This document shows, piece by piece, positions 13,986 to 44,560 of a stretch of 45,095 bases of DNA. The notes below the pieces were generated by a model, which saw nothing but the letters and a program-made list of their open reading frames with translations, did not search any database and was not told where the DNA came from. The first letter of the stretch is position 1; each line of letters opens with the position of its first letter. This stretch comes from Desulfomicrobium sp. (GTDB taxonomy: Bacteria > Desulfobacterota > Desulfovibrionia > Desulfovibrionales > Desulfomicrobiaceae). Position numbers and translations under genes: made by a program. Location: NCBI GenBank assembly GCA_003542385.1, contig DPKT01000351.1:1178-46272 (forward strand), given 5' to 3'.

Positions 13986-14106
13986 GGCGTGCCTCCCGTC
14001 CCATCAGCCCCCGTTACACGTTTTTCAACTAAAAAATACCAGACATCGAAGTACGTGTCATCATGGAAGCCGGCGCGGCACTTCCGCCACGCGGGGGAAG
14101 GAGGCG

Positions 14107-17599: not shown

Positions 17600-19597
17600 T
17601 CATTCCAGACGGCCCGAGAACGCCAAGGCGTCCTCCATCTGGGTGTCCAGCCTCAAGAGGTTGCGGCGCAGCCGCGCATGCAGCCGCTCTGCCGAGCGCT
17701 GGGCCATAAGCGCCAGCAGCCCGCACGCCCATTGTCCGCCGAGGGGCATGGGCGAGCGTAGGAGGGCCGCCGCGGACCAGCGCAGAAATGTCTTCACGTG
17801 GGTCGTGATCAGTTCGTCCTCAAGAGAAAGCACGGACTGGAAGGTGCCGGGATCGCCCTGTCGGCCGCAGCGCCCAAAGAGCTGTCGGTCGATGCGGCCA
17901 GCCTCGGAGCGTTCCGAGGCGATGACGTGCAGTCCGCCCAGTTCGGCCACGCCGGGGCCTAGGCGGATGTCCGTGCCCCGGCCGGCCATGTTCGTGGCCA
18001 CGGTGATCTGGCCGCGTTGACCGGCCTGGGCCACGATCTCGGCCTCTTGGCGGTCCTGCTCGGCGTTCAGCACCCTGTGGGGCAGTCCGGCCCGGTTGAG
18101 CAGGCCGCTCAAGAGTTCCGATGAGCCTACAGAACGCGTGCCAACCAGGATCGGCCGCCCGCTGCCGTGGATCTGCCCGATGGTTCCAACCACGGCCTCC
18201 CATTTCCGGCGTTCGGTGTCGAATGCCCGGCTCGGAAGGCCCTTGCGTCGAAGGGGGCGGTTCGTGGGCAGGGGGACCACGCGCAGACGGTAGATGGACC
18301 ACAGCTCCCGGGCCACCTCACGGGCGGTACCCGTCATGCCGGCCAGACGCAGGTAGCGGCGGAAGAATCGCTGGTAGCTTATTCGCGCCAGGGTGTCCTT
18401 GCGGCTGGTGGGATCGCAGCCCTCCTTGATCTCGATGAGTTGGTGAAGGCCCAACTCCCAGGATCGATCGGGCATCAGGCGCCCCGTGTACTCGTCGATG
18501 ATCTGGACCTTGCCGTCGCGGACGAGGTAGTGCTTGTCGCGCTCGAAGAGATACAGGGCCGAGAGTCCCTGCCGGACCAGTTCCTGGCGCTGCGGAGGGT
18601 TGGTCCATGCGCGGGCCTCGGCCCAGTCGAAGCCTTCGGTCTTGGCCTTGCCGCGGTCGCGTAGCTCCACGTTTCGTTCGCTCTCGGAGATGCTGAAATC
18701 ATCCCCGGCCGTGAGAGACGCGGCCAGATTGAGAGCCAGACGGTAGACGTTCTGGGCGGTCGAGGCCCCGGGGTCGGTGGAAATGATGAGGGGCGTTCGG
18801 GCCTCGTCGATAAGCACGCTGTCCGCCTCGTCCACGATGGCGAAACTTAGGCCGCGCATAAGCAGCCGGTTGGCCCGGGAGCTTTCTCCGTACAGGCGTT
18901 CGAGCTGCAGCCGCATGGGGCTTGGGCGGTCCCACATGACGATACGGTCTTTGAGGTAGTCGAAGGCCACCTCCTTGTTCGTGCAGTAGGTCACGTCGCA
19001 GGCGTAGGCCGCTCGGCGCGCGGCCGGGTCCATGCCCTGCCTGACGACACCCACAGTCAGTCCCAGAGCTTCGTAGATCGGACCCATCAGGGCGGCGTCG
19101 CGCCCGGCCAGATAGTCGTTGACCGTGATGATGTGCACGCGGGTCCCAGTCAGGGCCGCGGTGCAGGCTGGGAGTGTGGCTGTCAGGGTCTTGCCCTCGC
19201 CGGTCTCCATTTCCGCCACCATGCCGTTGAGGAGCACCAGGCCGCCGGACAGCTGTACGTCGAAATGCCGCATCCCGATCCGGCGGGACGCGGCCTCGCG
19301 GACCAAAGCGAAGGCCCGGGCCACTGCGTCGTCCCGCAGGCCCTCCATGCGCAGGGTCATGCCGATCTCGCGCCCGGTCTGCCTGATTTCGGGGTCCGTA
19401 AGACGCCCGATCTCCGCCCCGTGGTGGTCGATGCGACCAATCATGCTTGTTCCGAAACGCCCCCGTCCCGGACGTACCCATGGCGCCACCAAGGCGGACA
19501 GACCGGTCTCCAGGCGGTCGAGCCAGTTCTCACGTCTTTCCTCCCGCTCCGGGTAGATTCCGGCCGAGATCAGGGCGTTGGCGGTGTCCCTAGACAT
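17600..19597 (-). CDS. Accessory SecA paralog (SecA_DEAD-type), C-terminally truncated
   Basis: EMETGEGKTL, VNDYLAGRD, FDYLKD, IVDEADSVLIDEARTPLIIS, IIDEYTGR, GMTGTA, ATNMAGRGTDI, QLFGRCGRQGDPG, SLED. Only 665 aa; ends about 65 aa after SLED. Confidence 0.92.
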   Translation of the reverse strand: MSRDTANALISAGIYPEREERRENWLDRLETGLSALVAPWVRPGRGRFGTSMIGRIDHHGAEIGRLTDPEIRQTGREIGMTLRMEGLRDDAVARAFALVREAASRRIGMRHFDVQLSGGLVLLNGMVAEMETGEGKTLTATLPACTAALTGTRVHIITVNDYLAGRDAALMGPIYEALGLTVGVVRQGMDPAARRAAYACDVTYCTNKEVAFDYLKDRIVMWDRPSPMRLQLERLYGESSRANRLLMRGLSFAIVDEADSVLIDEARTPLIISTDPGASTAQNVYRLALNLAASLTAGDDFSISESERNVELRDRGKAKTEGFDWAEARAWTNPPQRQELVRQGLSALYLFERDKHYLVRDGKVQIIDEYTGRLMPDRSWELGLHQLIEIKEGCDPTSRKDTLARISYQRFFRRYLRLAGMTGTAREVARELWSIYRLRVVPLPTNRPLRRKGLPSRAFDTERRKWEAVVGTIGQIHGSGRPILVGTRSVGSSELLSGLLNRAGLPHRVLNAEQDRQEAEIVAQAGQRGQITVATNMAGRGTDIRLGPGVAELGGLHVIASERSEAGRIDRQLFGRCGRQGDPGTFQSVLSLEDELITTHVKTFLRWSAAALLRSPMPLGGQWACGLLALMAQRSAERLHARLRRNLLRLDTQMEDALAFSGRLE

Positions 19598-21737
19598 GAA
19601 ACCTCGTCAGGAAAAGTTGCCGCAGGGCGCGGTACCACCGCCAGACCAGGGGCTCATGGCCATGGTCGAAGCGGACGTAGACGCGTCCTCCGATGTTCAG
19701 GGTCCAGCGGGCCGATGGGGGTTCGACGTCGAACAGGAACATTTTCTGGAACGCGGTCAGGCCCATTTCGTCGCGCGGGTCGATGGCCACGGAACCGCCA
19801 CCGGTCTGTCCCAATGCCCTGCCTGGCAGGTGGTCCGTGGCGGCCGGCACTTCGCGCTTGAGGGCGGCTTCGGTGATCTGCGAAAAACTGTCCGGCAGCC
19901 TGAGTTCCACCGCCTTGGTCCTAGCCCGCACCAGATCCGCGTCCGGCTGGGACACGACCACCCGCACCGTGACCGTGGCCGGTTCGACAACATAGCCGAG
20001 CACTTCGCCCCGCCGAACGAAAAGACCGGGCAGGTCGCCCGGTTCGGGCACCAGGAACCTGCCCCCGATGGCGCTGTAGACCATCAGCTCGTCGGCCCTA
20101 CGCCGCGCGTCGTCGAGCTGGCCCGCCACGTGCTCCATTTCCTCGGCCGTGATCTGGGCCTTCAGCCTGTCCTCGAGGATCTGACTGCCGTGCAGGGTCT
20201 TCAGTTCTTCGTAACGGGCTTCGAGTACGCGGATGCGGGCGGGCAGGAAGGGGTCTGCGCACTGCACGAGCAGTTCGCCCGGGGACACCAGGCTGCCCGG
20301 CTTGGCCACGATGCGCTCCACGACGCCTTCAGCTTCGGCGCGCACGAAGGACTCCTCAGGCACCCACATGACCCCTTCAGTCCGCGTGCTCAGAGGAACC
20401 GGCACGAGGAAGACGGCGGCTGCGATGATGGCGGCCGCCCCCATGCTCACGACCATGGCCCGTCCTCTGCGGCGTCCCAGACGCGGCGAGGCGACAAGGA
20501 AGCGCAGCCCCTTGAAAAGCGGCAGGACAAACATGCTGGTTGCGGCCCAGACGGCCAGAAGCACGCCGACAAAGAAGAATTTTTCGGCGATGAAGAGGAC
20601 GATGAAGACGTAGATGAAGATTCGGTAGAAGAAGGCCGCAATCGAATAGACCAGTAACCAGGCTTTCTCTCCGGTCGTGGCCCAGGGAGGTTCCGCGTCC
20701 TGCATGCCGAAGAGTCGGCGCTGGACGAGGTAGGTCAGGTAGTTCATGCCCCGTGGGGCGAGGTTGGGGATTTCAAGCAGGTCCACCACAATGTAGTAGC
20801 CGTCGTAACGCAGCAGGGGGTTGATGTTGAAGAGCAGCGACGACACGCCGGCAATGAGCATGACGTTGTATGCCACGGCACGCACGGGTCCGGGCTCCAC
20901 TCCGACCCATACGAACATCGCCAGGGCCGCGATGAAGAGTTCCACGAACATGCCCGCTGCACCGACGAAGGCCCTTTCCCACTTGTCGCGGAAGGCCGAA
21001 GCCGTAGACGCGTCCACGTAGGGGATGGGGGTGAAGACGAGGAAGATGATGCCCATTTCGTGCACCTCGCCGCCCAGACGCTTGACGGCGAAGGCGTGGC
21101 CGAACTCGTGGAAGGCCTTGAGGATCGGGAAGATGACCCACATCAGCAGCAGGTTCCCCGGTGCCAGAACCCGGTCCGTGACGTCCTCGGTCAGTTCCGG
21201 CCAGTGCACGCCGGCCAGGAAGGCTGCCCAGGCCACCACAACCAGCCAGAGCAGTGCCCCGGCCCATCCGAAAAACGGTCTGACGACGCCTTGGAAGCGC
21301 ACCAGGATTGGTTCGGGGTCCAGGAGTTTGAAGCGCATGGACAGGGGGTTGCGGATGTTCTGCGTCAGCCTGCCGATTCGTCGTTTCTCGTGCCTTCGCT
21401 GCAGTTCAAAAATGTCGGGCGGCACGTCGCACTGCAGCACATCGGCCCCGTGCAGCTGACTCAGGATGCGGACCATCTCCTCCTGCGTCGGGGCGTCCTC
21501 GCCCAGACGCAGGCGTCCGATCTCCCAGATGTCCTGGACCGAGCGTTCGCCGTTCATGAGCCCGATGAGCTGGTAGGCGCCGGGCGTGAAGCGCATGTGC
21601 CGTCCCGAGGTGTGGTCCTGAAGCACGTACCACGGCTCGCCGCGGTACGTGTGACGGTGGATTTGCGCGTGACTGCGCAGGCGCGGCTTCAGGCTCGCGA
21701 CGCGATACCACGATGGGCTGTAGAGCGAGGATTTCAC
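19590..21737 (-). CDS. PqqD/RRE-like domain + M50 (site-2) metallopeptidase + membrane fusion protein fusion
   Basis: N-terminal winged-helix-like segment, HEFGH and NINPLLRYDG M50 motifs among TM helices, C-terminal MFP (EGVVERIVAKPGSLVSPGELL, coiled coil). Overlaps the SecA-like start by 8 bp. Confidence 0.88.
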   Translation of the reverse strand: MKSSLYSPSWYRVASLKPRLRSHAQIHRHTYRGEPWYVLQDHTSGRHMRFTPGAYQLIGLMNGERSVQDIWEIGRLRLGEDAPTQEEMVRILSQLHGADVLQCDVPPDIFELQRRHEKRRIGRLTQNIRNPLSMRFKLLDPEPILVRFQGVVRPFFGWAGALLWLVVVAWAAFLAGVHWPELTEDVTDRVLAPGNLLLMWVIFPILKAFHEFGHAFAVKRLGGEVHEMGIIFLVFTPIPYVDASTASAFRDKWERAFVGAAGMFVELFIAALAMFVWVGVEPGPVRAVAYNVMLIAGVSSLLFNINPLLRYDGYYIVVDLLEIPNLAPRGMNYLTYLVQRRLFGMQDAEPPWATTGEKAWLLVYSIAAFFYRIFIYVFIVLFIAEKFFFVGVLLAVWAATSMFVLPLFKGLRFLVASPRLGRRRGRAMVVSMGAAAIIAAAVFLVPVPLSTRTEGVMWVPEESFVRAEAEGVVERIVAKPGSLVSPGELLVQCADPFLPARIRVLEARYEELKTLHGSQILEDRLKAQITAEEMEHVAGQLDDARRRADELMVYSAIGGRFLVPEPGDLPGLFVRRGEVLGYVVEPATVTVRVVVSQPDADLVRARTKAVELRLPDSFSQITEAALKREVPAATDHLPGRALGQTGGGSVAIDPRDEMGLTAFQKMFLFDVEPPSARWTLNIGGRVYVRFDHGHEPLVWRWYRALRQLFLTRFHV

Positions 21738-24350: not shown

Positions 24351-27300
24351 TCACATCTCTATCTTGATCTTGCTGTTCGGGGCTGCCTTGCCGGTCCCGT
24401 CGAGCAGGAAGTCGCCGAGCCAGGCCTGCGCCCGTTCCGTCACGGCGTCACCGGGCAGGGCGGTTGCGTCTGCCAGGTCAAGCCGAACCAGCATCTCGGC
24501 CGTCTCGTCCATGCCCTCCACCGGGTTGTGCAGGGCCGCACCGTTCGTCATGGTGATCAGACTCGGCAGACCGTCATGAGCCGTGCGTCCCCTGAACCGC
24601 TTCAGGATCTTGTCCAGCCAGCCGTGGCTCCCGCCGTCGCCGAACTTGCCGTGCTCGAAGATCCAGCCCGACGGGATGCCGTTGGACGGCGGGGCGAAGT
24701 TGAACAGGCTCGACTTCGCGGCCGAAGGCATGGTCACCATGGCCAGGTCGGACGGCAGGTGCCGCACGCCTTCCTCGAGGGTGCCGCTCATGAGGCAGTC
24801 CAGGGCCGCAGGCACGTCCCTGAAGCCGAGCACATGGCCGAACTCGTGCATGACCGCCGTCAGGAGGTCCATGCCTTCGGCCGTGCCGCCCGTGAACTCG
24901 CTGTCGTCCAGCGGGGTCGGGTCGACGAACCAGCCGTAGCCGGCGGCATCGGCGTCGATGAAGACCGTGCCATTCCCGGTCAGGCCCAGGATCTGGCCCG
25001 AGAGGTCGCCGACCTGGAACTCCACGTCATGCAGCGCCGCAACGGCCTCCTCGCCCAGGGCCTCGGCCCAGAGGTCGATGGCCGCTTCGACGATGGGCGC
25101 AAGGTCCGTCTCGGTCGCCACGACGCCTTCCATCTCGCCGCTGGCGGGGATGTCGGCCGTCAGCGGCGTGCCGTCGTCGTTCTTGATGGTGATGACGCCG
25201 GTGCCGTCGCCGATGGTCGCCCCCACGGCCTCGGAGAGCACGACATCGAAGGTCTCGTCGAATTCGGCGACCTTGTCGCCGTTGACGGTCAGGGTGTAGG
25301 TCTTGCTCGTTTCACCGGGGGCAAAGGTGATGGCCGTGTCGGCCGCCACGTAGTCGAACCCGCTCCATGCCGTGCCGTCCTGTGTCTTCAGGCGTACGGA
25401 CACGGTGTCCGTCGTCGCCGCGGACAGGCTGATGGTCACGCTCACCTTGGTCTTGTTGGTCTTGTCGCCCTCCAGGACGCTGGCGTCCGAGACGGAGATG
25501 ACCGGCACGGTCGGGGCCGGGGCGTCGTCGTTCACGATGGTGACCAGGCCCGCCTTGTCGGCGATGACGGCGTTCTCGGAATCGAAGAGCTCGATGGTGA
25601 AGGTCTCGTCGGGCTCGACGACGTCGTCGCCGTAGACCGTGAAGGCCACGGTCCGGCTGGTCTCGCCCGGGTCGAAGGTTACCGTGCCGTTCTGTTCCAG
25701 ATAGTCTTCACCGGCCTGGGCTGTTCCCGCCACGGTCGCGTAGGCGACCGTCACGGGCGCATCCCACTCGGTCGAAAGGGTGAAGGTCACCTCGACCGTC
25801 TTCTGTCCGCCGTCGCCCTCCGTCACCGATGCGTCGGACACGGAGATCGTGGGCAGGGCTGGGGTGGCGTAGGCCGGGTCGTCGGTCCGGACCACCAGGC
25901 GGTCGAAGAGGACGTCCCCGTTGCGGGCCAGCAGTCCGAACTCGCCGTCCGTGACCAGGGCGTTGAACGCGAAGCTCAGGGCGGCTCCGCCGTCCAGGGT
26001 CACGCTGACGGTGCGTTCCGCGATGGTGATGCCGAGGGTGTAGTCCGTTCCTGCGTCGAGGGTCGCGCTCCTCTCGGCGTCGATGACGATGCCGCCCTTG
26101 GCGGTGCTGTGGCCGACGAGGATCTTGTCCGACTCCACGTCCAGGGTCACGAACTTGAAGTCCTCCGGGCCGTAGGAGTCGAACACGAAGCCGCCCTGGT
26201 TGGCCGTCCGGAGGACGGCTTCGAGGGACAGCACCGAGGCCGGGGCGATCCGCATGTCGGCGAGGTCGACGGCGGTCCCGCCGGGCGCGGCGGACAGGGT
26301 CAGGCTGCCGCCGTCCGCAATGCCGTTAACCGGCGTCTGGAAGAGGCCTTCGAACTCCGCCTGGCTGGAGAACTCCACGGTCTGCGTGGAGGTCATTTCC
26401 GGGGCGATGCGCTGCACGACCACGTTGTCGATGGCCGCCCTGGCGTTGTTGGCTCCCAGGCCGACCATGCCTTCGTGCAGGAAGTGCTCGATCCCGTAGC
26501 CATCGACGCGGGGGGCGAAGGTGTAGGTCAGGGTGGTCTTGTTGTTGACCCGCAGGGTTGCCGTGCTGCCGTTCAGGGCCAGGAACACGTTGTAGTCCGT
26601 GTCGGCCTTGAGGGATGAGGTGTAGGGGGCCTGCACCAGCACGTGCCAGCCCGAGGCGTCATGGTAGCCGATTTCGAGCTTGCTCGTGGACACGTTGATG
26701 CCGGCGAACTTGAAGTCCTCGGAGTTCTGGTAGTCGAAGATGAGGTAGGCGTTGGCGCCGTAGCCGCCCGTGGGCTTCACGGCGCGAATTGTAGCCAGCA
26801 TCTCGAAGTAGCTCGGGATGTATTCGTCGACGTAGAAGACGCTCAGGGCGTCGCCTCCAAGGGCCGTGGGCGCGACCTGGTAGCGGCCGCTGACCACGGA
26901 CCAGACGCCGCTGTCCACGAAGAAGGCGTCGGAGGTGCCGTCGTTGAAGCCCGCCGAGCGGAGCACGTCGCGGGCGCCGCCCGGGATGTTGCCGGCCTGC
27001 GGGTCGGCCGGCGCTCCGGTCTGATCCTGCCAGGCGTAATCCTTCTGCAGCACGAGACCCATCTCGCCTTCGGGTTCGCCGTTTCTGGTTTCGTCCCCCT
27101 GACGAGTGAAGTCCGCTCCGTCGGCCGCCGAGAGGGCGTACAGGAACTCGGGCAGGAAGGGCTGCAGGGTCCGGCTGACGGAAGCCGCGCCGAACGGGGC
27201 GTAAGGCACCAGATAGGAGTTGTATTCGCCCACCCAATCGATGAGACGATCGCCTCCGGTGTTGCCGATGAGCACGTCGCGGCCTGCTCCGCCGTAGGCC

Positions 27301-30300
27301 CTATCCTGGTAGAAGGGATGGGTGTCAGGGATGTCGTTCAGGCCGTCGTTTGTATCGTGATTGTCGTCGGCGTTGAGCAGGTCGTTGCCCCAGCCGCCGT
27401 ACATGTCGTCGGCGCCGGTGCCGCCCACCAGCCAGTCGTTGCCGAGGTCGCCGAAGATGGCGTCGCGGCCGTCGTCACGGACCTCAGGATAGGTTTCGGT
27501 CTGCTGGCCCGTGGCCTTGGGCACCGTGCCGCCGGGGCGGAGCACCCCTTCGTCCTTGTTGAAGTTGAGCAGGAACTGGAAGTAGTCAACTCCTTCAATC
27601 CCGTCCGTGCCCTTGTAGAGTTCGCCTTGCGGGGTCAGCAGGATGATACGGCGCGGGTCGTACTCGTCGTACAGGTCGAACTCGCCAGCCCGGAAGCGGT
27701 TGTTGGTGTGCTGCCCGTCGCCGTCGAGCGGGTTGAAGGCCAGCACGTCGCCGGGATTGGTCGTGGCCGGCAGGCCGACCGCGCCGTAGCCCAGGTTGAG
27801 GATGCCGTTCGGGTTGCCGGAAGCGTCGTATGTCGGCACGTAGGCGTCCATGAGGGCCTCGGCGCCGGAGATGGCGTCGTCGCCCGAGCCGCCGTGCAGC
27901 CAGTCGCTGCCCAGGCCGCCGAAGATGATGTCGTCGGCGTAGGGCTGGTTGTCCTGATTGTCAGGGAACTCGTCGTCGTTGCCGAGCCAGGTCTTGTCGA
28001 AGCTGAAGGGCACCAGGTCCATGGTCTTCTTCAGTTCGCCGGACACGTTGATCAGGGCGTACTGGATATCGCCGGGGGTCTTGATGACCTCGTTCAGGAC
28101 GTTGCCGTCGGCGTACTTCGGCCGCGGGTCGCTGGCCAGCAGCCCGGCGATGCCGTTGAGGGGCTCGCCCGCCGTGCTGTTGCGGCTGGTCAGGATCAGT
28201 CCGTCGTCGCCCAGGACGCCGTCCTGGCCCGTGCCTCCGGTGATCCAGTCGTTGCCGTAGCCGCCGATGATGTCGTCGTCCTGGCCCTCGCCGAAGATGA
28301 CGTCGCTGCCGGTCATGCCGAAGATGATGTCGTCGCCGGACTCGCCGTGGATCAGGTCGGCCGCGCCGTTGTCGGCGGGCTGACCCTCAAGCTTGGCCGC
28401 TCCGTTTACGTATTCGCCGCCGTTGTAGTCGGCGCCGCCCAAGTGGTAATCGAGTTGCTCCATGGCCCGCGGAATGATCTTCAGGGTGCCGTAATTGTCG
28501 TAGTTGAAGGTCCGGAAGAGATCCTTGGCGTCGGCCGGGTTCGTCCCGCTCGCGCCGCCCTGCACCAGGCGGTACACATTGGCGTTGTCGCCCATGATGT
28601 AGTCGGCGTCGCGGGCATGGCCCTCGGCGGTGGTTGTGATGACATGGGTCGTGCCGTCTTCGGTCGCGTCGCCGATATGGTTGCGGCCGATGTCGATGCC
28701 CGCCCCGCCGAAGATCACGTCGGAGGCGTCGGGCCGCATCGCTTCGGTGGTCAGGCCGAACAGGGCCGAACTGCCGCCGATGATGTCGTCCTGGCCCAGT
28801 CCGCCGTACATGAGGTCGCCGCCGCCGTTGCCTTCCAGGTAGTCGTCGCCGTCGGTCGCCGCTTCGGGGATGTTGAAGTAGAGGTCTTCGTCGGGATCGA
28901 CGTCGTCCTCAACGCTGATCATGTAGGTGATGGTTGCGTCATCTTCGTCGTTTACGCCGATGTAGCCGTCGCCCTGCATCAGGTCGTTGGCAAGCTGGCC
29001 GAACATCACATCGTTGTCCGCCCCGCCGGCCATGACGTCGGCCCCGAAGAGACCGGCCGCCGTGGTGTCGGCGTGATCGATCAGCTCGATGTCGCGACCG
29101 ACGGCGTCAGCCGGGTCGCTCTGCCACGTACTGCCCAGGTTGGCGATGATGGCCGTTTCTGAGGTCGTATAGATGGAGGGCGCCGTCAACGCGCGGAAGC
29201 GCGGGCTCAGGTCGTCGCCGCGACGCCAGACGATGGCATTGTCGCCGGCCATGGCGTCGTCACCGGTGCCGCCGTCCATGAGGTCGTTCACATCGTCGAT
29301 GGCGGGCGTCGAGATGCCCGTTCCGTCAAGGCTGGCCGAGATGGTCGTCAGGGACAGCTCGTCGATGCCGCCGGACACGTTGTGCCCGCCGGTCATGTCG
29401 TCGTTGCCGGAGCCGCCCCACATGCGGTCGTCGCCCTGCTGGCCGAGCATGCCGTCGTCGCCTTCCTCGCCCCACATGCGGTCGCCTTCACCACCGAAGT
29501 TCGGGGTCAGCGGATCTCCGTCCGTGTCGCCGGTATCGATGGCGAAGAAGTTGCGGGAGTTGAAGGCCAGGCGCCAATCCTGCCCAGGTGCCCTCAGGGC
29601 GCTGAACTGCGGGTAGAGGCGCCCGTGGTCGCCGAACATGAGGTCGTTGTTGTTCACCGCGCCGACGCCGTCGCCGTCGTCGCCATACATTTCGTCAGCG
29701 TTCGTTCCGCCGAACATCATGTCGCGGCCGTTGTCGCCGTAGATGAGGTCGCGTCCGCCGCTGTTGGGCTGCTCGGTGGTCACGAGGTCGAGGGTGGAGA
29801 GGTCGGTGTCGGCCGTGCCGGCGCCGTATTTGGCCCAGAGGGCGGGATTGTTGGCCTCGAGATCGATGCCAAGGACGTCGAAGAGCCGTCCGGTGGACAG
29901 CCATTCGAAGGCGCCGTTGTCGCCGAGGATGATGTCGTCGCCGTCCAGCAGCGTGGTGTTCTTGCCGCCGGACGTGGTCGGGTCGAGGCGGTCGCCGTAG
30001 AGGGTGTCGCCGTAGACGCCGCCGGCGATGATGTCGCCGCCGGCGTTGCCGGAGATGGTGTCGGAGCCGCCGGTGTTGTCCGGGTCGTCGCAGTCCGTGG
30101 TGCGGATGGTCTTGACCGCGGCGTCGAGGACGAGCTTCAGGTCGAAGCCCGAGTCCGGCGCCAGGGGCGCCGCCACCAGGAAGATGTCGGCGTTGTCGCC
30201 GATCAGCAGGTCGCCCAGATCGGCAGCGCCTGCGCTGGCGTTGGCGTCGTCACCGTAGATGATGTCGCCGGCCGTGCCGCCGATGGCCACGTCGAGGCCC

Positions 30301-33300
30301 TTGTTGCCGGAGATGACGTCGATGCCGCCGAGGGCGTCTTCGAAGGAGCGGATCAGGTCGAGGGTCATGCGGTCGGTGTCAGCCATGCCCGGTTCGTCGC
30401 CGGGGTAATCCGCCGGGTCGTAGGTGAAGTCGAGGAGGCCGTTGTCGCCGAGCATGATGTCGTCGCCGTCGTCGGCGATTGTCGTCGAGTTGGGCAGTGC
30501 GCGGTCACCGTACAGCAAATCCTTTTCGAAGCCGTTCAGTTCGTCGCCATCGTCGTTGTTCACGCCGCCGAGCATGATGTCGTTGCCGGCGTTGCCGGAC
30601 ATGGTGTCGGCGCCGCCGGTCGCTTCCTCGGTATCGGTGGTCGTGATCAGGTCGACGGCCGTGCCGAAGACGAGCAGGCGGCCGTCCGTACCGGACAGCT
30701 CAATGCGCGCGTTGTCGCCGAGCATGATGTCTTCACCGTCATCGTCGCCGGAGGATGCGGATGCGTTGTCTCCGTACATCGTGTCTTCGCCCACTCCGCC
30801 GATGAGGAGGTCATTGCCCTCGTTGCCGGAGATCTCGTCCCCTCCGCCCAGGATCACACTGTCGTCCACTGTCTGTGTGGCCTGATCCACCACCTTGTAG
30901 GGTTGAGAGATGATCAGTTCCAGCGTGCCGAAGTCGGGACCGGTCTGGAGCGGCGCGAAGCCGAGGGAGTTGCCTACGGACGCAGCCAGCAGGAAGCTCT
31001 GCATAACGGAGCCGTCCTTCCTGGCCAGGGTGATGCGGTTCCCCTCCGCGAGGGCTTCTATGTCGCCGCTCAGGTCCACGTCCTTAGGCACGGCTTCACT
31101 GGATTTGGCGTTTGCCAGGGCCGTGTTGATGGCCGCAACAAGCGCGCCCATGTCCGCATATTCACCTGCCGGCACCGTGACCTTGACCGGCACGGTGTCG
31201 CTGTAGCGGGTGATGTAGAAGGTTTGGGCGTGTTCGAGGGCGGGTGATTCGATGTCTTCGACGCCTGTCAACGCGACTGGGTCGAGGCCGAAGTCGAGAA
31301 GACCGTTGTCGCCCAGGATGATGTCGTTGCCGGTGTTGCCGAACAGACTGTCCGGGCTGCCGTTGACGCCGCCCAGGATGATGTCGTCGGCCTCGTTGCC
31401 TTCAATCAAGTCCGCGCCGCCGGTGTTGGTCAGAGGGGTGTCTTGATCGGTCACGTCGGACGTGTAGATTCGGCGGGCTATGCCGAAGTCGAGTTCGATC
31501 ACTCCGTTGTCGCCAAGGAGGATGTCCTTGTCCGGTGAGTAGAATTCCCCATCCTCACCTTCGATCTGCACCACGGGGGCGCGGCCGCTGCCGTGCCCGC
31601 CGTAGATGAAGTCGCCACTGGTGCCGCCGAAGGCGATATCGTTGCCGTTGTCGCCGAAGATGTGGTCGATGCCCACGCTCTCGGCGTCGGGGATGCTCAT
31701 GATCATGCGGTTGAGGCGGCCGAAGAGTTCGATGCGCCCGCCGTCGCCGATGAGGACGTCATCACCGATGGGGTTGATCTCGGGCAGAGCGCCTGCATCG
31801 GCCGGGGCGATGTCGCCGCCGATCCAGTCGTTGCCTGCCCCGCCGAGGACAACGTCGTCGCCGGCTCCACCGTTGATGGTGTCGTTTCCGTCGGTGCCGT
31901 CCCCGTCGAGGGCGTCGACGTCGACTTCAGTGACGATGAGGTCCAGCGTCTCCTTCAGACCGTCATCCGTGAAGGTGCCCACAAGGGCGTCCAGGCTGGC
32001 GACCGTCGCCCCGCCGTCGCCGATAAGGCGGTTGCCCGAGGCGTCGGTGCGGATCAGGGAGCCGATTTCAATGACGTCGCGCAGGACGCCGTCGGCCTTG
32101 AGCTCCGTCGCCTGAGCGGTGGTGTAGAATTCGAGGAACGCCACCAGCCCGTCGTCGCCGAAGACGATGTCGTTGCCGGCCTCGCCGTCGATTCTGTCAT
32201 CGTCTGCGCCGCCGAAGATGGTGTCGGGGTTGATGCCGCCCTTGATGGTGTCGTTGCCGGCGTCACCGAAGATAATGTCCGCCCCGCGGTCGCCGTAGAG
32301 GCGGTCTGCACCTTCCTGGCCGCGGATGTAGTCGTTGCCGTCCTCGCCGAAGATGGTGTCGCCGGAGTCGGGATCGCCGTCAGCGACCGTGTCGGCGTTT
32401 TCGGTGGCGTAGGCGTCGGCATAGCCGAACATGATGTCGTCATGGGCGCCACCCAGCATCAGGTCGGAACCGCCGCCGCCGTACATGGTATCCATGCCGG
32501 TCTGGCCGAGCATGCGGTCATTGCCGGCGCCGCCTTGGAGGAGATCGTAGCCGTAGCCGCCGTACATGACGTCTGCGCCGTCCTGGCCGAAGAGCCGGTC
32601 ATTGCCGCCCGTACCAGTGTCGGTCAGCCGCAGCGTCAGGTAGCCGAACTGGTCGTAGCCAACCATTCCGGCCTTGGCCGCATCGGGTGTCCAGACGGTC
32701 GAGGGGAGTGCGCCGCTCGCATACTGGATGTTCACGCCGTCGCCGATGAGCAGATCCTTGTCGCCGCCGCCTTCCAGCCAGTCGTTGCCTCCTCCTCCCA
32801 CGAGCAGATCGATACCGGCGTCTCCCAGCAGATGGTCGTCCCCGTCGTTGCTGCCCGGCATCACGAAGAGGCGCTTCAGTGTCGTACCGTCGTTTTCGTA
32901 GACCAGAGTGCCGCCGTCACCGAAGAGGATGTCGTTTCCGGCACCGCCTGCGATGGTGTCGAGGCCCTGTTCGCCGTAGATCACGTCTGCGCCGCCGCCG
33001 CCGATCAGGCTGTCGTTGCCCAGGCCGCCGCGGATCAGACCGGCACCGGTGCCGCCCGTGACCTCGATGATGTCGTCGCCGCTGCCGCCTTCAATGGCGT
33101 AGGTGATTCCCGAGGTTCCGAGATCCAGGAATATCCTGTCGTCGCCCTCGCCGCCGTAGGCGATGATGTGGTCGGCCTTGTAGACCTGGGCCGCGCTCTG
33201 CGGGACGCCCAGGCCCCAGACCTCCACCTCGCCGCCGCCTATGGACCTGACGCGAATCTCCTCGCCGAAGTCGTCCGTGTCGCCGTTGAGGCGCGAGCCG

Positions 33301-36300
33301 GAGTTGGCGCCGATGTTCAGGAGCAGGGCGCCGTCGCCGCGCTCGGTAGCCAGGATGGGTTCACGGTCGAAGGGTATGCTGAATTCGAAGAGCACGATCT
33401 TGGGCGTGATGTCGAAGGTGTACTCGAACATCAGCGCCTTGATGTAGGCCCGCAACTGGGCCGAGATGTCGCCGTAGACGTCGAAGATGGCCACGGGAGC
33501 CAAGGCCGGGTTGCCTGTGCGGGCCTCGTAGAGGAAGGCTCCGAGCATCTCGTCGACGCGCACCTTGCCGTCGCGGTCAGGGTCGTAGAGGTCGAAGTTG
33601 ACCGTCAGGATCAGTCCGCCCTCGACTCCCGCGCTGGCGATGCCGAGGTTCAGCTCCGCCCCGGCGAAGACCTCGCCTTCCAGCACGAGTTCGGGCACAT
33701 CGGTGCCGCCCGTGCCTTGCGGCAGATCGGTGTCGCTGATGAAGAAGCCGGCCAGTAGGTCAAGGGGGTTCTCGAAATCGCCTTCGACGAATCTGGCCAC
33801 GCCCTCGGTGTCATAGCCGAAAGCAAGGTCCACGGTGACGCCCGCACCGATGGTCAGGACGACGTTGAAGGGGCCCCACACCGGGAAGCTTTGCCGCCAC
33901 TGGAAGTCAAGCCCGAAGGGCGGCAGGTCGTAGGTGATGAGCGTCGCGGGCCTGCCGAGCAGCAGCCCGAAGATTTCGGAAGGACTCTCGAAGATGGGGA
34001 AGCCGAAGCTGCCCGCTCCGGGCGCGGTGCCGTTCAGGACGCTGGAACTGGTCGCCCCGGTGGAACCGCTCGTGTCGATGCCGTCGAGGATCGTGTCCAG
34101 CCCGTCCTCGAACCCGCCCAGGGCATCGCCCAGGGAGAACCCGCCCTCGCCGCTGGAGTCGCTGCCGAGGTCGAAGTCGGGCAGAGTCAGGTTGAACTTG
34201 AGCTCGTCCGTTGAACCGGGGCCGATGATGCTCAAGCTGCCGATGGGCACGATGAGGGAACCGGGCTCGGCCGGGATGCTGTTCACCAGGGAGATGATGT
34301 CGGCGATGGCGTAGATCATGCCTGTTTCGACGTAGCCGGTCAGACCGGCGATATCGACCAGGGTGATGGTCCGCCCCGCCAGGTCGGAGACCACCGGAAT
34401 CCGCGCGGTCATGAAGTCGATGACAGGCTGCAGGGGTTCCGTGATGTCCTGGATGTTCTCCACGATGGGCCCGAGGAAGTCGCCGAGGAAGGAGCCCATG
34501 TCGATGCCGACATGGCGGAACTCAACCAGTTCGAGCATCTTCGAGAAGTCGTAGTTCTCGGCGCCGATGAGATCGCCCGTCGACCAGTCGAGGACGAATT
34601 GCGCCCCGACCTGCGGGATGAGGGCCGACACGGCGTCGGGGATGATGTCTTCGTTGAATTTTGCGACGAGTCCGAGGTTGACCTCGGCGTCGACCTGGAG
34701 GTCCACGTCCGCGCGCAGCTTGCCGAGTTCGGAGAAGCTCAGGTGTTCATCCTTTTCTTCGTCGGTATCGTCCTCGTTGTAGAGGTCGACCTGGAAAACG
34801 GCCGTCAGCCGCGTCTCGTCGACATCGCTGTCGCCAGCGCCGTTTGGCCTGTTCACGAGCTGCTGTGTCGCGGCGTCCCAGTATTGCTGATCGAAGTTGT
34901 CCCAACTGGCGTCCACCTTGAAGCGATCACGGAATTCGTCGTAGGCGCCGGTGGCGTCTCCCGGGGAACCGTCGCCCAGGGAGAAGACGTCCACCTGCAG
35001 GAAGGCCAGCTTGCCCGAGAGGCGGTCGCCCGGGTTGAACCAGGCGTCCGCACGCAGGTAGAGCTCGTCGGAGATGTCAATGTCGTCTGTCGCATCATTG
35101 GTGGTGCCTTCAATGTCGAGCTTCCGCGGGTTGTCGATATCGATGTAGGCACCGTCGGTCCGGTTGATGCCGATGCCCAGGGCCAGGTCCCACAGCAGGA
35201 GCAGGTTCAGCTTGGCGTCGGACTCCAGGCCCAGGGCCGGGAAGCCTATGTCGAAGCCAAGGTCGATGTCCGGGGTGTAGCGGTCGCCGAGACGCAGATC
35301 CCACTGCACCTGGTCATCCATCCAGTCGGTCGGGGTGTCTTCTCCCAAATAGGTGAAGGTGATGAAATCGTCCGCCGTGTCCTTGTCCACGGTGCCGGCA
35401 TTGTAGGCATTCCAGTCGACGATGCTGCCGTCGGTCGGGTCGACGAGCTTGCCGAGGCCGGGCAGGGAATGGAAGGCCGCGTAGAAGGCGGCCGGATCGC
35501 TGGCATCCCACACGTCGCCGCCGGGGCCGAGGATGGTGAAGAGGAAGTTCTGCACGAAATCGCCGGCCACTTCGGGCGCGTTGGCGATGATATCCCTGAA
35601 GGGCTGGATGATCTGGCTGCGGATGTTCTCGATAAAGTCGCCGCCCGCCGCCAGGCTGTCGCCGATGAACGGCAGTTCGATGCCGAAGACCTCGCCGTAG
35701 AGGAAGTTCTGGACCTGCTCCATGAACAGATCCAGGGCGTCGATGGCGAGGCCGACGTTGTCGAAGAGGCTCAGGTTGCTGAAGTCGATGCTCGACAGGT
35801 CGGGAACGTAAGGGATTAGGTTGCCGAAGACGAAGTCGCCGTCAGCCGAAAGCGAGATGGTCGGATTGAAGCGGATGTCTCCCAGGTAATCTGAGTCTGT
35901 GGGGAAGAAGAGCGGCAAGGTGGCGTTGACGACCGGATCGGCGATGCCCGAGAGGTCGAAGCCTTCAAAGGCGCCGGCCATGTCCACCCAACCGTCGGTA
36001 CCGCCGCTGAATTCAAAGCCGAGGTCGACCCGTGCCGTCCCGCCGGTGACGAACAATCCCAGCGGGCCGAGGGCCGCGTTGAAGGTCAGTGTGTCGCTGT
36101 AGGCCTCGAAGCTGCCGGTGATGCTGGTATCGTTTTCATAGAGGTATATTTCGCCGGTATCGAGGTTGATGCCGAAAGCCAGCCTGGCATCCACATAACC
36201 CGTCGCGCCGAGGCCCGCCGCGCCTTGCAGGCTCAGGGGGCCGAGATCGACGCCGGCCAGATCGCCCAGATCCAGGTCCACGTCGATGGCTTTCTTGAAG

Positions 36301-39300
36301 CCCACGGGCAGGCGCAGATCGATGCGAAGGATGTCGTCGCCGTCCAGGGTGGCGAAGGCGAACTTGAGCACGTCCGAGGCCGGGTCGGTGATGCCGTACT
36401 GCTGGAAGTAGGCCTGCATGGCCGCGGCCGGGTCAAGTTCCTTGCTGAAGTCGGGCAGCCCGAAGTTCTCCCGGATCTTCTGGGCCAGCATCTGCAGGCT
36501 TCCGGCCGGATTCTGCCGGATGTCCTCCACTGCGGCGCGCAGACGGTCGACGAAGTCCATGACGTCGTCGAGGCTCAGGCCCAGGAACGGGATTTCGGTC
36601 CTGAAGAAGTCGTACGTGGTGTCGAATTCATCCAAGAACCCGAGCAGGCCATCCATGGCGTCCATGACCTGATCGAAACCGATGTCCTGGAAATCGCCGA
36701 GGTTGCCGAGGGCTGTTTCGAAATGCTGTCCGAGGCTGTCGAGGACATCCAGGGTCGGCAGGCCGGGGTCGAACGAACCGATTTTTTCAAGCGCTTCAAT
36801 CCCGGCGTCGGTCGACCAGTACGGCAGGCCAGAGAGCGGCGTGACAGTGAAACGTATCCCCGAGAACGGGGACGCGCCTTGGAGTTTCAGACTGCCGGAG
36901 GTGGCGACGATGTAGTCATCGAGTTTCGCCTTGGCGATTGCGTAGTTGAAATCGGCCACAAGGTCGGCAAGCGAGGTGTTCGCTGCACCGCCACCGATCC
37001 CCGTGTCGAGGTTGTCGCCGTCGGTGTTGTCGGCCAGCACCGTCACGGTGCGGGTTACGCCGCCGTCTATGGCCACCTCGAAACTGAAGTCTTCAACCAG
37101 GACATAGTCGCCAAAGGGATCACCCAGCGTGACGAACGGAGGCGCGGCGAAGGCGTTGCCGAGGTTGTCGAGGGAGACGATGATCCTGCCGTCGCCCAGG
37201 TTGAGCGGGGTGGCCATCCCGGAGATGGCGCCGTCGAGGGTGGCCAGGAGGCCGAAGTCGGCGGTGCCGGTGAACGTGGGCCTGCTGATGACGGCGGACA
37301 GTTCGTCGATGGTTCCGGGCAGAACAGCCTTAGTGACGCTGTCCTCGGCCGTGAGTGCTTTGAACAGGTCGGTCATCGTCCGCTCAGGCGGACCAGCGTA
37401 AACGATGCTGCTGGCGAAGTCGCCGGTGTAGAGGGTTTCCTGGGGAGCCCCCGGTTCGGCCTGGAGAGATTCGTCGATATCGGGTGTGGCCGGGTCGTCG
37501 GTTTTCATCCAGGGCGTGGCAACGCTGGGGTTGAACGGTCCGATCAGGTTGACGCCGACGAAGCCGAAGGCTCCCTTGGCGCTCAGTGCGTCGTATTCCG
37601 GCGTGGAGGGGTCGTCGATGGCCTTGACGGTGACGGTCGCGTCAAGGAAGGGCTCGGAGCCCAGGTTGCGCACGAAGACGCGGTCGGCCAGTTTGATGGC
37701 GGCAATGGCTTGACCTTCGATCAGCCCATCCGGGGTTTCATCGACGGTTGTCGTGTCGGCCCCGAATATTCCCAGAGAAATTGCCGCGCCGCTACGGTTC
37801 ACCGTATCGACTCGGAACAGGGATGAACCCGTCGAGGAGTCGCGCAGGTTGATGGCCGTGCCGGAAGCGTCGTATTCGAGCGTGACCAGATGATCGGTCT
37901 GTGCGTAGATTCTGTCGGCGACCATTCCGATGTTTGTCGCGTCGTCAAGGGACACGCGGTAGACATGGCCATTTTGCGTGTAGATCAGCAGATCCGCGGA
38001 ATCAGCTTCGACGACTCCGTCGATATCAGGCGGATCGAGTTGTGGGTGTGGTATCAGATGCAAATCTGTCGCCGCAGGATTCGTCGGCGAGAGGGCTTCC
38101 ACGCTGAAGCCTGTGTAGTCGGTGCCGATCTCGGCACCCGCCGCCTGCATCAGCACCATCCGGTAGCCGTCGTTGGATGCGGCAACGTACGGGCGCAGGT
38201 CGACGACCACGTCGTTTGACGGGTCGGCGTCGCCGTCAAACAACACGGCCTTGCTCAGGGCGCGGTTCATGTCCGAGACCAACGAGTAGATGCTTGAGTT
38301 GTCGAGGTAGTCAGCCCGTCCCGTCGCAGGGTCGACCGTGCCGACCTTGACCGTATAGGCGTTGCCGTCCAGCGTGCCGCCCGTGAAGCTCACCGTGAAC
38401 GTGGCTTCGCCGCCCGGACCGTAATAGAGGGGCGCGGACTTGTTGGCGAGCACGGATAGATCGGCGGTCGCCGTCTGTCCGGTTTCAATCCCCAGCGCCC
38501 CGGCGCCGGCGGTCACCTCAAAGGACAGCACGGACGGGTCGATGGCGCGTAGCACGATGCGCTGACCGCTGACCTGGGCCAGTATTTTCCCGGCAAGGTC
38601 GATGTCCGCGGAGATGACGGCGTTCAAATCCGCCACGAGCTCGGAGATGCCGGCGTTGGGGTCGGTGCCTGGGAGCGCACCGTTGGTGGCGTCTGCATCG
38701 ATATTCAGGGTTTTGTTCAAGGTGCCGCTGGTGGTCGTGATGGACAGGCCGAGGCTGATGTCGTCCGTCAGTTGGCCGAGATACGGCGAGGGGATGTCTT
38801 TGTCGCCTTTGAGTTGCACGCCTGCGGAGCTCATGGCCGTGCTATCGTAGCTGCTGTTCGTGAATCCGAGTTCTCCAGCTGAGCCGCCCGCCAGGACGAC
38901 AATATTGATGACGCTTGCCGAAGCAGCCTTGAGCACGATTCTCTGGCCTTCTGCCGCGGCCACGATGCGCCCTCCAACCCCCTTGTCGGTCAGGGCTTCG
39001 TTGAGATCGTCCACGAGGTCGCCAATGTCGTCATTGTCTGCCGTATCGGCGGCAAATACCGTGATGGTGCCATAAACACCGTCAAGTGACGGATCCGAGT
39101 ACGTCACGTTCAGCATGAAGCTCTGGTCTGCCGTGAGATGGCCGTCGGCTGAGACGATATCCGTCGTGGCAACAAGCGGTTGTAGCCATTCCCAGTTGAT
39201 GCCGAGTTCCTGTATGGCAGCTTGGGCCTCCATCCGGAAGAAGTTCACGTCGGGGTCGATGGCGCCGTAGACTATCTGGTTGCCGTCCCGACTGGCCACG

Positions 39301-42300
39301 AAGCGGTCCAGCAGGGTCTTGCCGCCGCCTATGTCCACCCTTCCGAAGGCAAGGTTGATGTCATTGACGAGGTCCGTGACGGTCCGGTTGCCGTCGGTGT
39401 CGGTCTTGAGCACGGTCACGGAATAGGTCGTGGATGATAACCCTTCGAACAGCGTGACCGTGAACGTCTTGTTCTCGGTGAGCTGCACGGATGCGGGCGT
39501 CGCTCCGGTCAGGGACACCGTGACCGCCTGTTCGGGTTGCAGCCCGAGTTCCGTGAAGGCGGTGCTGGTCGCTGTGGAATCGATGCTGAAACCGATCACG
39601 TCGGCATCCGAGGTGATGAGGCGGACGCGGTCCCCGACCGCTTCCGCAGTGATCCCGTAATCGGCCTTGAGATGCAGGGTATTGGCTGTGGCGTTGCCGA
39701 ATTCGTCGAGTTCCTTGGCCGCGTCCAGGGCCAGGTCGATGTCCTGCAGGAGATTTTCCAGGGTCTTGTTTGAGTCGGTCAGGCTCTTGGGAACCGTGAC
39801 CCGGGCCATCATGACCGCGCCGCCCGCAGTGGTTACGGTCACTTCGAAGATGGCGTCGGCCGAGAGACGGCCGACATAGCTCGAGACGTCGTCAACGCCG
39901 GTTACGGCCAGGATGTCGCTGATGGTGACACCCTTGTCGCCGTTGAGACCGCCAGTCCCGTCCAGCGTCGTCTCGGCGCTTATGGCTTTGGCCGCACTGC
40001 CCAGCTTGAATCCAAGAGTGGTGTTGAGGAACCCTTCCACTCCGACGTACAGCGTCGACTCGGTGAAGAGGCCGTCCAGGGGACTCAGGTCGAGGCTGAA
40101 GTCGGCCGGCACCGCGACGTCTTCAAAGGGGTGGCTGAGACGAATGTCGTAAGTCAGTTCGGACTTGCCCGTGTGGAAGCGCGGATTGATGGCGTCGCTC
40201 CCGAGCGGGAGCGCGACGAGCCGGGCGGCCAGTTCCTGCGCGGTGTCGAAGGTCACCACCAGATTGGCGTTGTCGCCATCCATGAGCCAGGCGATGAGCT
40301 TGCCGGTGTCTGTGGCATCGTCGGCGCCCGGCTTGGGTTGCAGCCCGTCGTCGCCGTCATCGATGATCAGTGCGTCCTCAAGCACATCGGCGAAATCGAG
40401 GACGTCGCCCATAACCGCCTGGGCGAAGGGGAGCTGGTAATTGGCCAGGAGTTGGCTTTCGGGCAGGCGTTCAAGCCATGATTGGAGCTGAGAAAGCCCA
40501 CCCAGCACACTATTGGCGTTGATGACGGTGAAGTCGAGCATGTTCGCCCATGCCGTATCCCCCGGCGACCAGTCGGCCGGGTCGATGTCCGTGTCCGCCT
40601 TGTCTGTGCGAATTTGGAGCAGCGTTTTGCCGGCGGCGTTGGTCAGGTTGAAATCCGGCCGGTCGTATTCGTCCTCGCCTTCAACCATGCTGAAGCCGGT
40701 GAAGGGGTTGATGTTGACCTTGAGGGTTGCCGTGGGCTCATAGACCATGCCAAACTGGTCCTTGAGGCCAGCCTTGACTTTCAGGGGGAGGCTGATCTGC
40801 AGGGCGTCGTCCGTGTTCCAGCCGGCCTTGTTCGAAAGGAGATTGTCTGCGGAGGTGCTGTGAAGTTCGTCGTAGGTGATAACGTTTTCGGCATCGAGGA
40901 TGAGGGCGCGGCTGATCTCGATCGATTTGGCATCGGGCTGCAGGAGGCTGGTCCTGTAGTACAGTTCGATGTTGCCTGCGTTGTCCCGCGCGAATACTCC
41001 GTAAGAAAACAGTGGGCTGATCATTTGGAATTGCAGGTTGGAATCCCGCAGTTCCGCATTGATGTCTGAGATCAGACTAGCCAGCGTGACGACGTCGTCG
41101 CTGGGGTCGCCGTTTCCATCGTCGAACAGAGTCGGCGTCACAGTGACCAGGATTGGTAGCGCTCCGTCAACGGAAACGAGGAAGCTGACAGGCGTCACAT
41201 CGGTGGTGCCGATCATGGACGCAGCACTCGTGGCGGTAATGGTTTCGTAAGGGTCCGCATAGAGTTCATTGCCGCTGAAGCCCAGTGGGGTGATGTCGGC
41301 GTCGGGCAGGGAGAACTTGAGACGCCATTCCCCCCCGGAATAATATTTACCCGCAGTGATCAGACCGCTGAGGTCGTACGGCGACGCGTCAGCCAGGGCG
41401 TCGTTGATGTCGTCAATGAGATCGTCGAGGGTCGCGTTGTCCTGGGTGCTGGCCGCGGTGATCTTGATCTGCGATAAGGGCGACGTGGCGGTCAGGCCTA
41501 TTTTCAGGGTGAAAATGACGTCCGAGGGGAGGATGAAGTTTTCCGGCTCGGGCACTTCCCCGGCCAGGAGACCTGTCGTGCCCATGACCGGGAGAGTCTG
41601 GACAAATCCGAGGGCGTCGGGATGGCTCGGGTCGTGGAACAGGGTGTCCACACCCATGTCGATGAGGAACTCGCCAGTCGATGTGCTCGTGCCCAGGAAG
41701 CCCACATTGACGTCGGTCACGATGCCGGTGTGATGGGCCTTGACCCCGATTTCCAGTGAACCGTCGGGAACCGTGATGAAGAAATCGTGGACATCCGTGG
41801 GGCCGGTGGGAGTTCCATCCGGGAGTGCCAGGGTGTCGGGCGGCGGAGTGGGATTGGGGATGGTCTTTGCTGCGTAGCCTTGCAGGCCAATGATCAGGTC
41901 GTCGAAGTATACCCCCGCCTCGACCTGGATTTTGGTGGCTTCCAGTCCTGGTTCGGCGATGCCGCTCGAATTCGCCGGCTTTTCGGTGCCTACGGAGATG
42001 TTGAGTTGGTCGGACTGATAGCCGAGGTCCATGACGACATCGTGGTTGAAGACAAATTTGACGTCTTCCATCGTCAGCGTGAATCCGGGCCCGAGGTTAT
42101 GGGCAGTGACGGTGCCGATATCGACTTCGACCAGGGATTCACCGTTCGTGGCGAGCAGTTGTCCCGACGGATAGGCCGAATGATATGCGTGGCCGGAGAC
42201 GAGGGCCGCAGGAGCTTGCAGGCCTGATTCAAGGAATGTGTCGAGCTCGGCCAGGAATTCGCTGACGGACTTGTTGACCCAACTCGAACCATCCCATTTC

Positions 42301-43076: not shown

Positions 43077-43769
43077 GACCTCCCCCTTGCAATGAACCCC
43101 GCCATTGCTGCCCGCAATCACTCTGCTTCAAAAAATCTGGCGACATCGTGCTCCGATATTCCGCTGGCCGGCCGGGAATCCCGGTCCGACGCTCTGGTGC
43201 GCGGCATGGTTTGGGGCATGTGTCGTGTCTCCTGACTGAAATGATCGGAAATCTACCAGACGGCGCCGTTGGACTTGGATACGGAGACGGGAGAGGAGAG
43301 TTTGGCCTGTATTGTCAGGCGAATACAGATGGAAGAGGAAGAGTTTTGTCCGTAGTTAACAGATTTTTATAGTTTCCATACCGCTCTACAAAATATTCGT
43401 CAATAGGGTTTTCAGATTTTTTGTGTTTGGTCGAATCATTCAATACCTCTGGATAGATATAGTTCTGGTTGTATTTATAAACTGAGTAGTTACAGGTCAT
43501 ACATTTTTTGTATGACCTATGAATTTCTTGTCGCAAAATGGAATGGCGCAGGATTTAATTCTGGTTGTTACGTTTTATGGCAGGGATATGTGGCTGGCGA
43601 TGGGTAAAAATGAATTAGATGCATGCCGTGTTGGCATGACGTTACTGTTTATATTGTGTCAAGGACGTGTGACTTTTGTGTCTGCAAGGCATGTTTTCTG
43701 TGATATATGAGATTCATTGTGGATTGTTCACCCAGATTTTCTGCGGCCAGATGTGTTCAAAGAGCAGTG

Positions 43770-44204: not shown

Positions 44205-44560
44205 TTGTGTGTCCTCTGAACAGGTCTGTGCGGACAAATTGCCGACCTGACGTGTCGCATGGGCGGCTTGAGGCGTTGTCGCATACATAGACGGGTCGCC
44301 TTTTACGGGATGCTGCGACATTCCCTACAGCATAATCCGTGTGCAGGGAATGGGACCGCCGCAAGGAGTCCGGTTTTTTTCGAGGCACGTTGTACGCTCA
44401 AACCTTGCCACGGGAAATAATTCTGTCAGAGAAGAGATGAAATCCCATTCATTTGGGGCTCCACTTTTTCCCTATTGTTGGGTATGGTTTATCTCAAGCG
44501 GCATGCGCGCCGCCCGGCGGCGCTCGGTTTCGACTTTCAATCTTTCAGGAGGGAACACGA

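Follow-up and report, generated by a model that had tools for sequence, protein, structure and literature searches.

The stretch considered here, 45,095 nucleotides of Desulfomicrobium sp. DNA (assembly GCA_003542385.1, contig DPKT01000351.1, positions 1,178 to 46,272; hereafter the window), encodes a protein that joins in one chain a recognition element of the kind found with peptides that are made by ribosomes and modified after translation (RRE and RiPPs, respectively), an M50 (site-2) protease and a membrane fusion protein (MFP). Across genomes, this fusion travels together with a short leader of the LEPR-XLL type that stands near the start of giant proteins. As the fusion co-travels with LExR-tagged giants across bacteria, it likely reads the tag and probably clips it. 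We lean towards viewing it as the entry gate of an exporter that lacks an ATP-binding cassette (ABC) transporter, in which the RRE would bind the leader, the M50 protease would cut it, the MFPs and TolC would form a conduit and a SecA paralogue would assist in this clade. The components of this reading carry different weights: a role in exporting these giants is highly probable, reading of the leader by the RRE is probable, and cutting of the cargo by the M50 protease is rather likely. The system as such is real and widespread, its role in export is putative, and its mechanism is likely RiPP-style.

The association of leader and fusion is seen in two genome samples. The LEPR-XLL model NF012209 has a match in 47 of 50 fusion-bearing genomes (50 of the 80 related loci, picked for their long flanks) and in 9 of 300 unselected genomes of the window's own phylum, a set that is not taxon-matched to the 50. 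Among the 300, a fusion that includes the MFP occurs in 21 genomes (9 close, 12 distant), and a further 11 have weaker M50 relatives, four of which were inspected. A broader leader model, A5, matches 17 of the 21 at E<=0.01 (15 at E<=0.001) and 12 of 16 when the five genomes that supplied its training rows are left out; it also matches 3 of the 279 other genomes of the set and none of the 11 that hold only weaker M50 relatives. In all four misses among the 21, the contig carrying the fusion ends before any cargo start. The second sample, a second class counted without its centre genome G030 and the unscored G548, gives an A5 match in 13 of 14 close-clade genomes versus 4 of 212 genomes without a fusion match. 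Together with the resemblance to daptide leaders described below, these counts strengthen the link between the fusion and a LEPRxLL leader made in the original prediction, which was drawn from the window sequence. Leader variants follow the fusion clades on a quick tree, a grouping that kinship alone could explain; because the tree has long branches and a midpoint root, no direction from RiPP to secretion or the reverse is claimed. A previous leader profile, A4, was too narrow, finding no match in G150, G181, G241, G184 and G217, and was replaced by A5, while PF07595 (Planc_extracel) is unusable as a leader model since it has no match in any of five genomes, including that of the window. Two leader-bearing open reading frames (ORFs), G164:C57:63747 and G186:C59:22936, lie in genomes 94-95% complete in which this query did not find the fusion.

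The giant encoded in the window carries the leader motif HLEVLEPRVLLSAD, which is the sole NF012209 match in the source assembly, itself 63% complete. Its likely start is the ATG at 43076, behind GGGGGAGG, which would give 6241 aa. The protein contains 13 GGxG[DN]D repeats between residues 3323 and 5242 and two Calx-beta domains; an HEFGH of its own near the C-terminus (24830-24850 on the minus strand, residue 6092) may mark a metalloprotease domain. Across 41 leaders, the pattern is a hydrophobic residue at -7, E(-6), any residue, L(-4), E(-3), P(-2) and R(-1), followed by L L L S A D, or F/L-E-x-L-E-P-R|LLLSAD as a consensus, and LEALEPR is the most frequent 7-mer (5/41). Conservation extends to both sides of R50, the window giant's counterpart of R(-1). 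Within the first 60 residues, the pattern occurs in 33 of 1656 long frames of the window's own genome. Elsewhere, a single genome, G298, has ten leader-bearing ORFs (open frames of 137-1225 aa) and one fusion match, which suggests many cargos per exporter.

The N-terminal part of the fusion, which the original prediction had described as PqqD-like with three strands and three helices, is confirmed as PqqD/RRE-type over residues 17-102 by sequence profile and predicted fold. Residues 1-115 of the window protein match no Pfam family at E<=0.01; among 77 aligned fusion N-termini, 67 match PF05402 (PqqD), and a profile built from the 77 and searched against the PDB at E<=10 returns three sequences, all PqqD, with 3g2b at E 4.6e-5 over profile positions 17-102. 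An AF2 model of the domain (pLDDT 82.7) places strands at 24-31, 34-41 and 47-50 and helices at 52-58, 67-81 and 85-97. In VIA-align, the model scores Z 8.2-9.4 across TbiB1 (Z 9.4, rmsd 3.0, 82 aligned), the lasso B1 protein 6jx3 (Z 9.2, rmsd 2.8, 83 aligned), PqqD 5sxy (Z 8.8, rmsd 2.7, 88 aligned) and PbtF. The top VIA-align rows are non-RiPP winged-helix domains (Rv2067c, Z 10.0), and Foldseek with this model returns nothing at E<=0.001, its best rows being GdmN. The fold by itself does not single out an RRE, given that non-RiPP winged helices reach equal scores, and it is the sequence result that carries the RRE assignment. On the RRE surface, R32, W36 and R49 are each kept in 134-139 of the 144 aligned sequences.

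The protease part has both HExxH and NPxxxxDG ligands within a multi-helix membrane domain, which identifies it as a putative M50 site-2 protease whose activity is suggested by the invariance of its catalytic residues. The zinc motifs lie where the original prediction had placed them, and H210, E211, H214 and D312 are present in 120/120 and 144/144 aligned sequences, each count including the query row, at identities of ~36-51%. Pfam PF02163 (M50) reaches 20 bits, below its cut-off of 27.2. A full-length model, built on the protein P0001 that differs from the window protein at residue 159, has ~7 predicted membrane helices, with HExxH and D312 at would-be cytoplasmic helix ends and a basic stretch ahead of the last helix. 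In the proposed topology, the N-terminus would be inside, the zinc site would be cytoplasmic and the MFP would be outside. The conserved hairpin at residues 227-242 is presumably the substrate-binding edge strand, as in RseP-type proteases. The C-terminal ~270 residues match adaptors of the MexA/AcrA/MacA type (Foldseek E 1e-9), in agreement with the MFP proposed to follow the protease. Homologues of the fusion are common: of 7997 candidates scored, 7572 gave a match, and clustering at 50% identity leaves 4348 clusters with matches at E<=1e-30.

Two families of peptide-maturing proteases bear on how such a protein might act. NF041824, the equivalog model of the daptide protein MpaP, matches fusion residues 18-409 at E 7e-46 with 157 bits against a cut-off of 300, and hhalign aligns the fusion with a RefSeq-annotated MpaP collinearly over residues 15-446 (probability 99.5%); MpaB/C/D/M and a short precursor are not among the operon genes, which are annotated otherwise. 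In the accessible text of Ren et al. (10.1101/2023.03.08.531785), MpaP is described as a site-2 protease fused to an RRE and as the enzyme that takes off the leader; the daptide leader motif is ELExMEAP, whose L(-7) and M(-4) are required for modification that depends on the RRE of MpaB. MpaP/DapP has an N-terminal RRE and a site-2 protease in common with the fusion, and its leader is similar to that of the giants. It differs in ending with a tail of ~120 aa where the fusion has a full MFP, in its ~50-aa peptide substrates and in its neighbours, which are ABC transporters and modifying enzymes. In one locus (L164:7956-9596), the ~120-aa tail of MpaP after the last membrane helix may be an MFP remnant. 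For the M50 protein EpeP, a review (PMC10885120), in the part available to us, gives both cleavage and export of its peptide as the presumed role. EpeP/YydH has in common with the fusion an intramembrane M50 protease thought to cleave and export its substrate; it differs in that NF058609 matches the fusion only weakly (E 8.6e-8, residues 197-326), in that this model contains neither RRE nor MFP, and in its short peptide substrate.

The leaders themselves are suggestive, although not proof, of a shared register with daptides. In daptide precursors of Streptomyces, the sequence is LEALEAP|G or LETLEAP|G. When ten precursors are scored with a position-specific scoring matrix of leader positions -7 to -3, the top-scoring window coincides in register with the daptide P|G boundary in six of them (shuffle p 0.0015-0.008). 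A matrix of positions -9 to -3 leaves the same six precursors in register, and significance is lost (p 0.11-0.14). This register predicts a cut after R50 (LEVLEPR|VLLSAD), with a cut after LLSA as the alternative. Within the window's own phylum, MFP-less RRE-M50 relatives at three loci (L141, L142 and L143) lie beside radical-SAM or YcaO/ThcOx genes and constitute unstudied RiPP clusters, one of which encodes a 49-aa candidate precursor with FTLEELEQ (L141:1057-1320).

The neighbours of the fusion were counted in the 80 related loci wherever enough flank was present. An MFP with a GAF domain (GAF-MFP) is adjacent in 66/66 loci, a SecA paralogue is found in 59/63 and a short MFP in 40/46. DUF3467 appears in 27/61, a lower bound from a single-sequence search, and an ABC motif in 3 of 39 loci with full flanks. 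TolC was detected in 4 of the 80 close loci with a hidden Markov model made from distant-clade TolCs, and it adjoins the fusion in many distant-clade loci. The SecA paralogue was considered as a general leader receptor and rejected, as it is missing from 5/5 genomes with SecA-less loci, all of which hold only canonical SecA. Four of these five have a leader-bearing neighbour, and in G041 (L060) the leader matches lie elsewhere in the genome; among the phylum's distant loci without SecA, a leader variant is carried by each of the six adjacent giants for which the start was present. Since SecA-less loci are still leader-bearing, SecA probably does not read the leader, nor does it serve as a motor in every such system. 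In the window's own assembly, the paralogue is the only tblastn match to SecA, and the missing canonical copy probably reflects assembly incompleteness.

The distribution of the system reaches plasmids, where, of 83 matches, 18 are headed by Escherichia and 8 by Citrobacter. Loci on E. coli and Azospirillum plasmids share the order giant-TolC-MFP-MFP-fusion, and neither SecA nor an ABC gene belongs to the cluster; the starts of the giants read FALESRQLFDGA and MALEPRFMFDAA, respectively. The E. coli locus (L165:4161-21539, plasmid NZ_CP060066.1) encodes a 3668-aa immunoglobulin-like giant, TolC, two MFPs and a fusion with an intact HELGH.

In the mechanism that we favour, the acidic and hydrophobic leader would bind along strand 3 of the RRE, with R28, R32, R46 and R49 meeting the leader glutamates. 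The zinc site would face the cytoplasm like the RRE and would cut after R50 or, alternatively, after LLSA. The MFP part of the fusion, the GAF-MFP and the short MFP may build a conduit to a TolC encoded elsewhere in the genome, so that the inner-membrane fusion would link the cargo to a channel in the outer membrane, and the shortened SecA could serve as an accessory motor in this clade, being neither leader receptor nor universal.

Several observations weigh against this mechanism. In the second class, only 5 of 23 distant fusion matches have a leader match; 13 of the 18 misses were fetched, of which four have adjacent giants with diverged leaders (LESRILLDAA, LEARLMFDGA, LEQRVVLDAA and LENRIVLDAA), five are stand-alone weak M50s, two lie at contig ends, and two (G567 and G473) have no giant, TolC or MFP nearby. 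Kin genomes in the samples are not independent, and for this reason no p-value is given for the co-occurrence. Distant leader variants such as RKLEQR and LKLENR are without the upstream hydrophobic-E part and keep only LExR and three hydrophobic residues, so that the daptide-like register is not universal; moreover, the six precursors in register belong to two Streptomyces clusters that are close relatives, and the two from Bacillus are off register. The alanine scan done for daptides addresses MpaB's RRE and not MpaP, whose cleavage appears in the available text only as a statement (10.1101/2023.03.08.531785). The GAF-MFP is an equally constant neighbour (66/66 loci) and is itself a possible reader, the mechanism offers no energy source for the SecA-less systems, and binding, cleavage or export data for any member were not found in the literature searched.

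Some of these data would also suit other arrangements. The RRE might hold the leader in the cytoplasm while the giant is threaded out, with the M50 cut acting as a regulated release, possibly controlled by the GAF-MFP, in a logic like that of LapA/LapG. The co-occurrence fits this tethering equally, as do the RTX-type repeats of the cargo and a sensory GAF domain in 66/66 loci, but we regard it as unlikely because the repeats are central (residues 3323-5242 of 6256) rather than C-terminal, and because 59/63 loci encode a SecA-type motor, which normally starts from an N-terminal signal. It is improbable to a similar degree that the RRE reads the leader while the protease spares the cargo, its helices forming an inner-membrane pore and its active site trimming another membrane protein or clearing stalled substrate. 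The ~7 predicted helices are compatible with a pore, as proposed in the available text of Kamneva, Poudel and Ward (PMC4452313), and a processed N-terminus of such a giant was not found in the literature read; on the other side stand the catalytic residues intact in 144/144 sequences, a leader whose conservation flanks R50 in the way expected of a protease site, and the description of the homologue MpaP as a leader peptidase in the accessible part of 10.1101/2023.03.08.531785.

Still less probable is that reading the leader falls to the GAF-MFP, DUF3467 or the SecA paralogue, with a structural or vestigial RRE. This would agree with the constant adjacency of the GAF-MFP, with the occurrence of the same winged-helix fold in non-RiPP enzymes and with the strong divergence of the RRE in the E. 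coli-type fusion (E 0.03 against an RRE profile), yet the SecA paralogue is missing in all five genomes tested, DUF3467 occurs in only 27/61 loci as a lower bound, and R32, W36 and R49 are retained almost throughout. Finally, the fusion could mature and export a small RiPP-like peptide while the giant uses an ordinary ABC-type type I secretion system (T1SS), for which the radical-SAM and YcaO genes beside MFP-less relatives, a 798-aa ORF with a C39-peptidase match and three TolC-type genes in the genome might speak. We consider this very improbable, since no RiPP enzyme is annotated in the operon, the giant is the genome's only LEPR-XLL match, and giants with the leader go with the fusion from taxon to taxon.

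The gene set was already known, as the window operon is a member of the secondary SecA_DEAD/T1SS-related locus described computationally by Kamneva, Poudel and Ward in 2015, insofar as the available text allows comparison (PMC4452313). The locus shares GAF-HlyD, M50-HlyD, SecA_DEAD lacking SW (the wing/scaffold domain) and HlyD with no ABC gene, and those authors proposed SecA as the ATPase and M50 as the pore; in contrast, SecA is dispensable in several genomes here. Their text, in the portion accessible, names no RRE, cargo or leader and reports no protein experiment. A 2026 preprint on Chlorobium giants carrying LEPRxLL assigns no function to the motif and appeals to T1SS or autotransport. 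Within a literature search that left subscription journals largely outside its coverage, no paper joining RRE, leader and export was found, and PMC8277102 and PMC13723633, in the portions accessible, contributed nothing further.

Peptidase-containing ABC transporters (PCATs) couple leader cleavage to export and had been the precedent in the original prediction; the homologous RRE-fused site-2 protease MpaP and the M50 protein EpeP are better ones. T1SS and PCAT machineries share an MFP and RTX repeats in the cargo with the window system, and a TolC partner may be a further common feature, but they differ from an operon that has an MFP and no ABC transporter, a zinc M50 and RRE instead of C39, up to three MFPs, and a putative LExR leader instead of a double-glycine or C-terminal signal. 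No C39 peptidase is present in the operon, and the leader of the giant is not double-glycine. By analogy, the fusion most likely works like MpaP and conceptually like a PCAT, yet belongs to neither family.

The question addressed is how bacteria export proteins of 5,000-36,000 residues that have no signal peptide, and the proposed gate makes it directly testable because it specifies which parts would serve as receptor and protease, where the cut would fall and which single-residue mutants to make. If true, it would link RiPP maturation to protein secretion and help to export proteins that are among the largest in bacteria with no ABC pump of the usual kind, and might yield a short tag for secreting very large proteins. 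More tentatively, the data could describe a distinct secretion route, neither ABC- nor SecYEG-based and with SecA optional, in which the fusion would combine the roles of receptor, leader peptidase and inner-membrane gate for cargo of up to 19,000 residues and more. The cargo would be marked by an LExR tag of ten residues that resembles daptide leaders, and the route would be spread from Desulfobacterota to E. coli plasmids.

Table 1. Coordinates of the fusion, its domains and the neighbouring operon genes in the window
Feature	Position	Strand	Remark
RRE-M50 (site-2 protease)-MFP fusion	19590..21737	-	715 aa; GTG start, GAGGAGG ahead
PqqD/RRE domain, aa 17-102	21432..21689	-	conserved R28, R32, W36, R49
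HEFGH zinc motif, aa 210-214	21096..21110	-	H/E/H invariant, 144/144 aligned sequences
Conserved beta-hairpin after HExxH, aa 227-242	21012..21059	-	G229, P237, P239 invariant
NPLLRYDG, aa 306-313, with third zinc ligand D312	20799..20822	-	alignment
Periplasmic adaptor (MFP) part of fusion, aa 446-715	19593..20402	-	MexA/AcrA/MacA-type matches
Giant candidate cargo	24351..43121	-	6256 aa as called
LEPR-XLL leader motif HLEVLEPRVLLSAD, giant aa 43-56	42954..42995	-	NF012209 match
Predicted cut after R50 in leader of giant	42972-42974	-	register with daptide leaders
DUF3467 protein, 110 aa	23721..24053	-	
GAF-domain MFP, 630 aa	21748..23640	-	one central membrane segment
Shortened SecA paralogue, 665 aa	17600..19597	-	Walker A and DEAD motifs; no SecA_SW match
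Short MFP, 245 aa	16849..17586	-	signal-like segment at N-terminus

The minus-strand order of the operon is giant, DUF3467, GAF-MFP, fusion, SecA without the wing/scaffold domain and short MFP. Its annotated genes include no ABC transporter, TolC or RiPP enzyme, and no TolC lies within the window, the three TolC-type genes of the same genome being located elsewhere. Parts of the operon are matched by near-identical contigs in two metatranscriptome assemblies that have no DNA control and no strand information, and these contigs are not taken as proof of expression; in the same RNA comparison, X3 resembles other strains. Upstream of the giant lies an AT-rich gap (43122-43769), with a GC content of 0.53 in 42000-44000 against ~0.65 elsewhere, followed by a 183-aa ORF (43770-44321, minus strand) that has a signal-like segment and no Pfam or NCBIfam match. 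After the operon, the same strand encodes a PAS hybrid histidine kinase and a PAS-GGDEF-hemerythrin protein (11691-16605).

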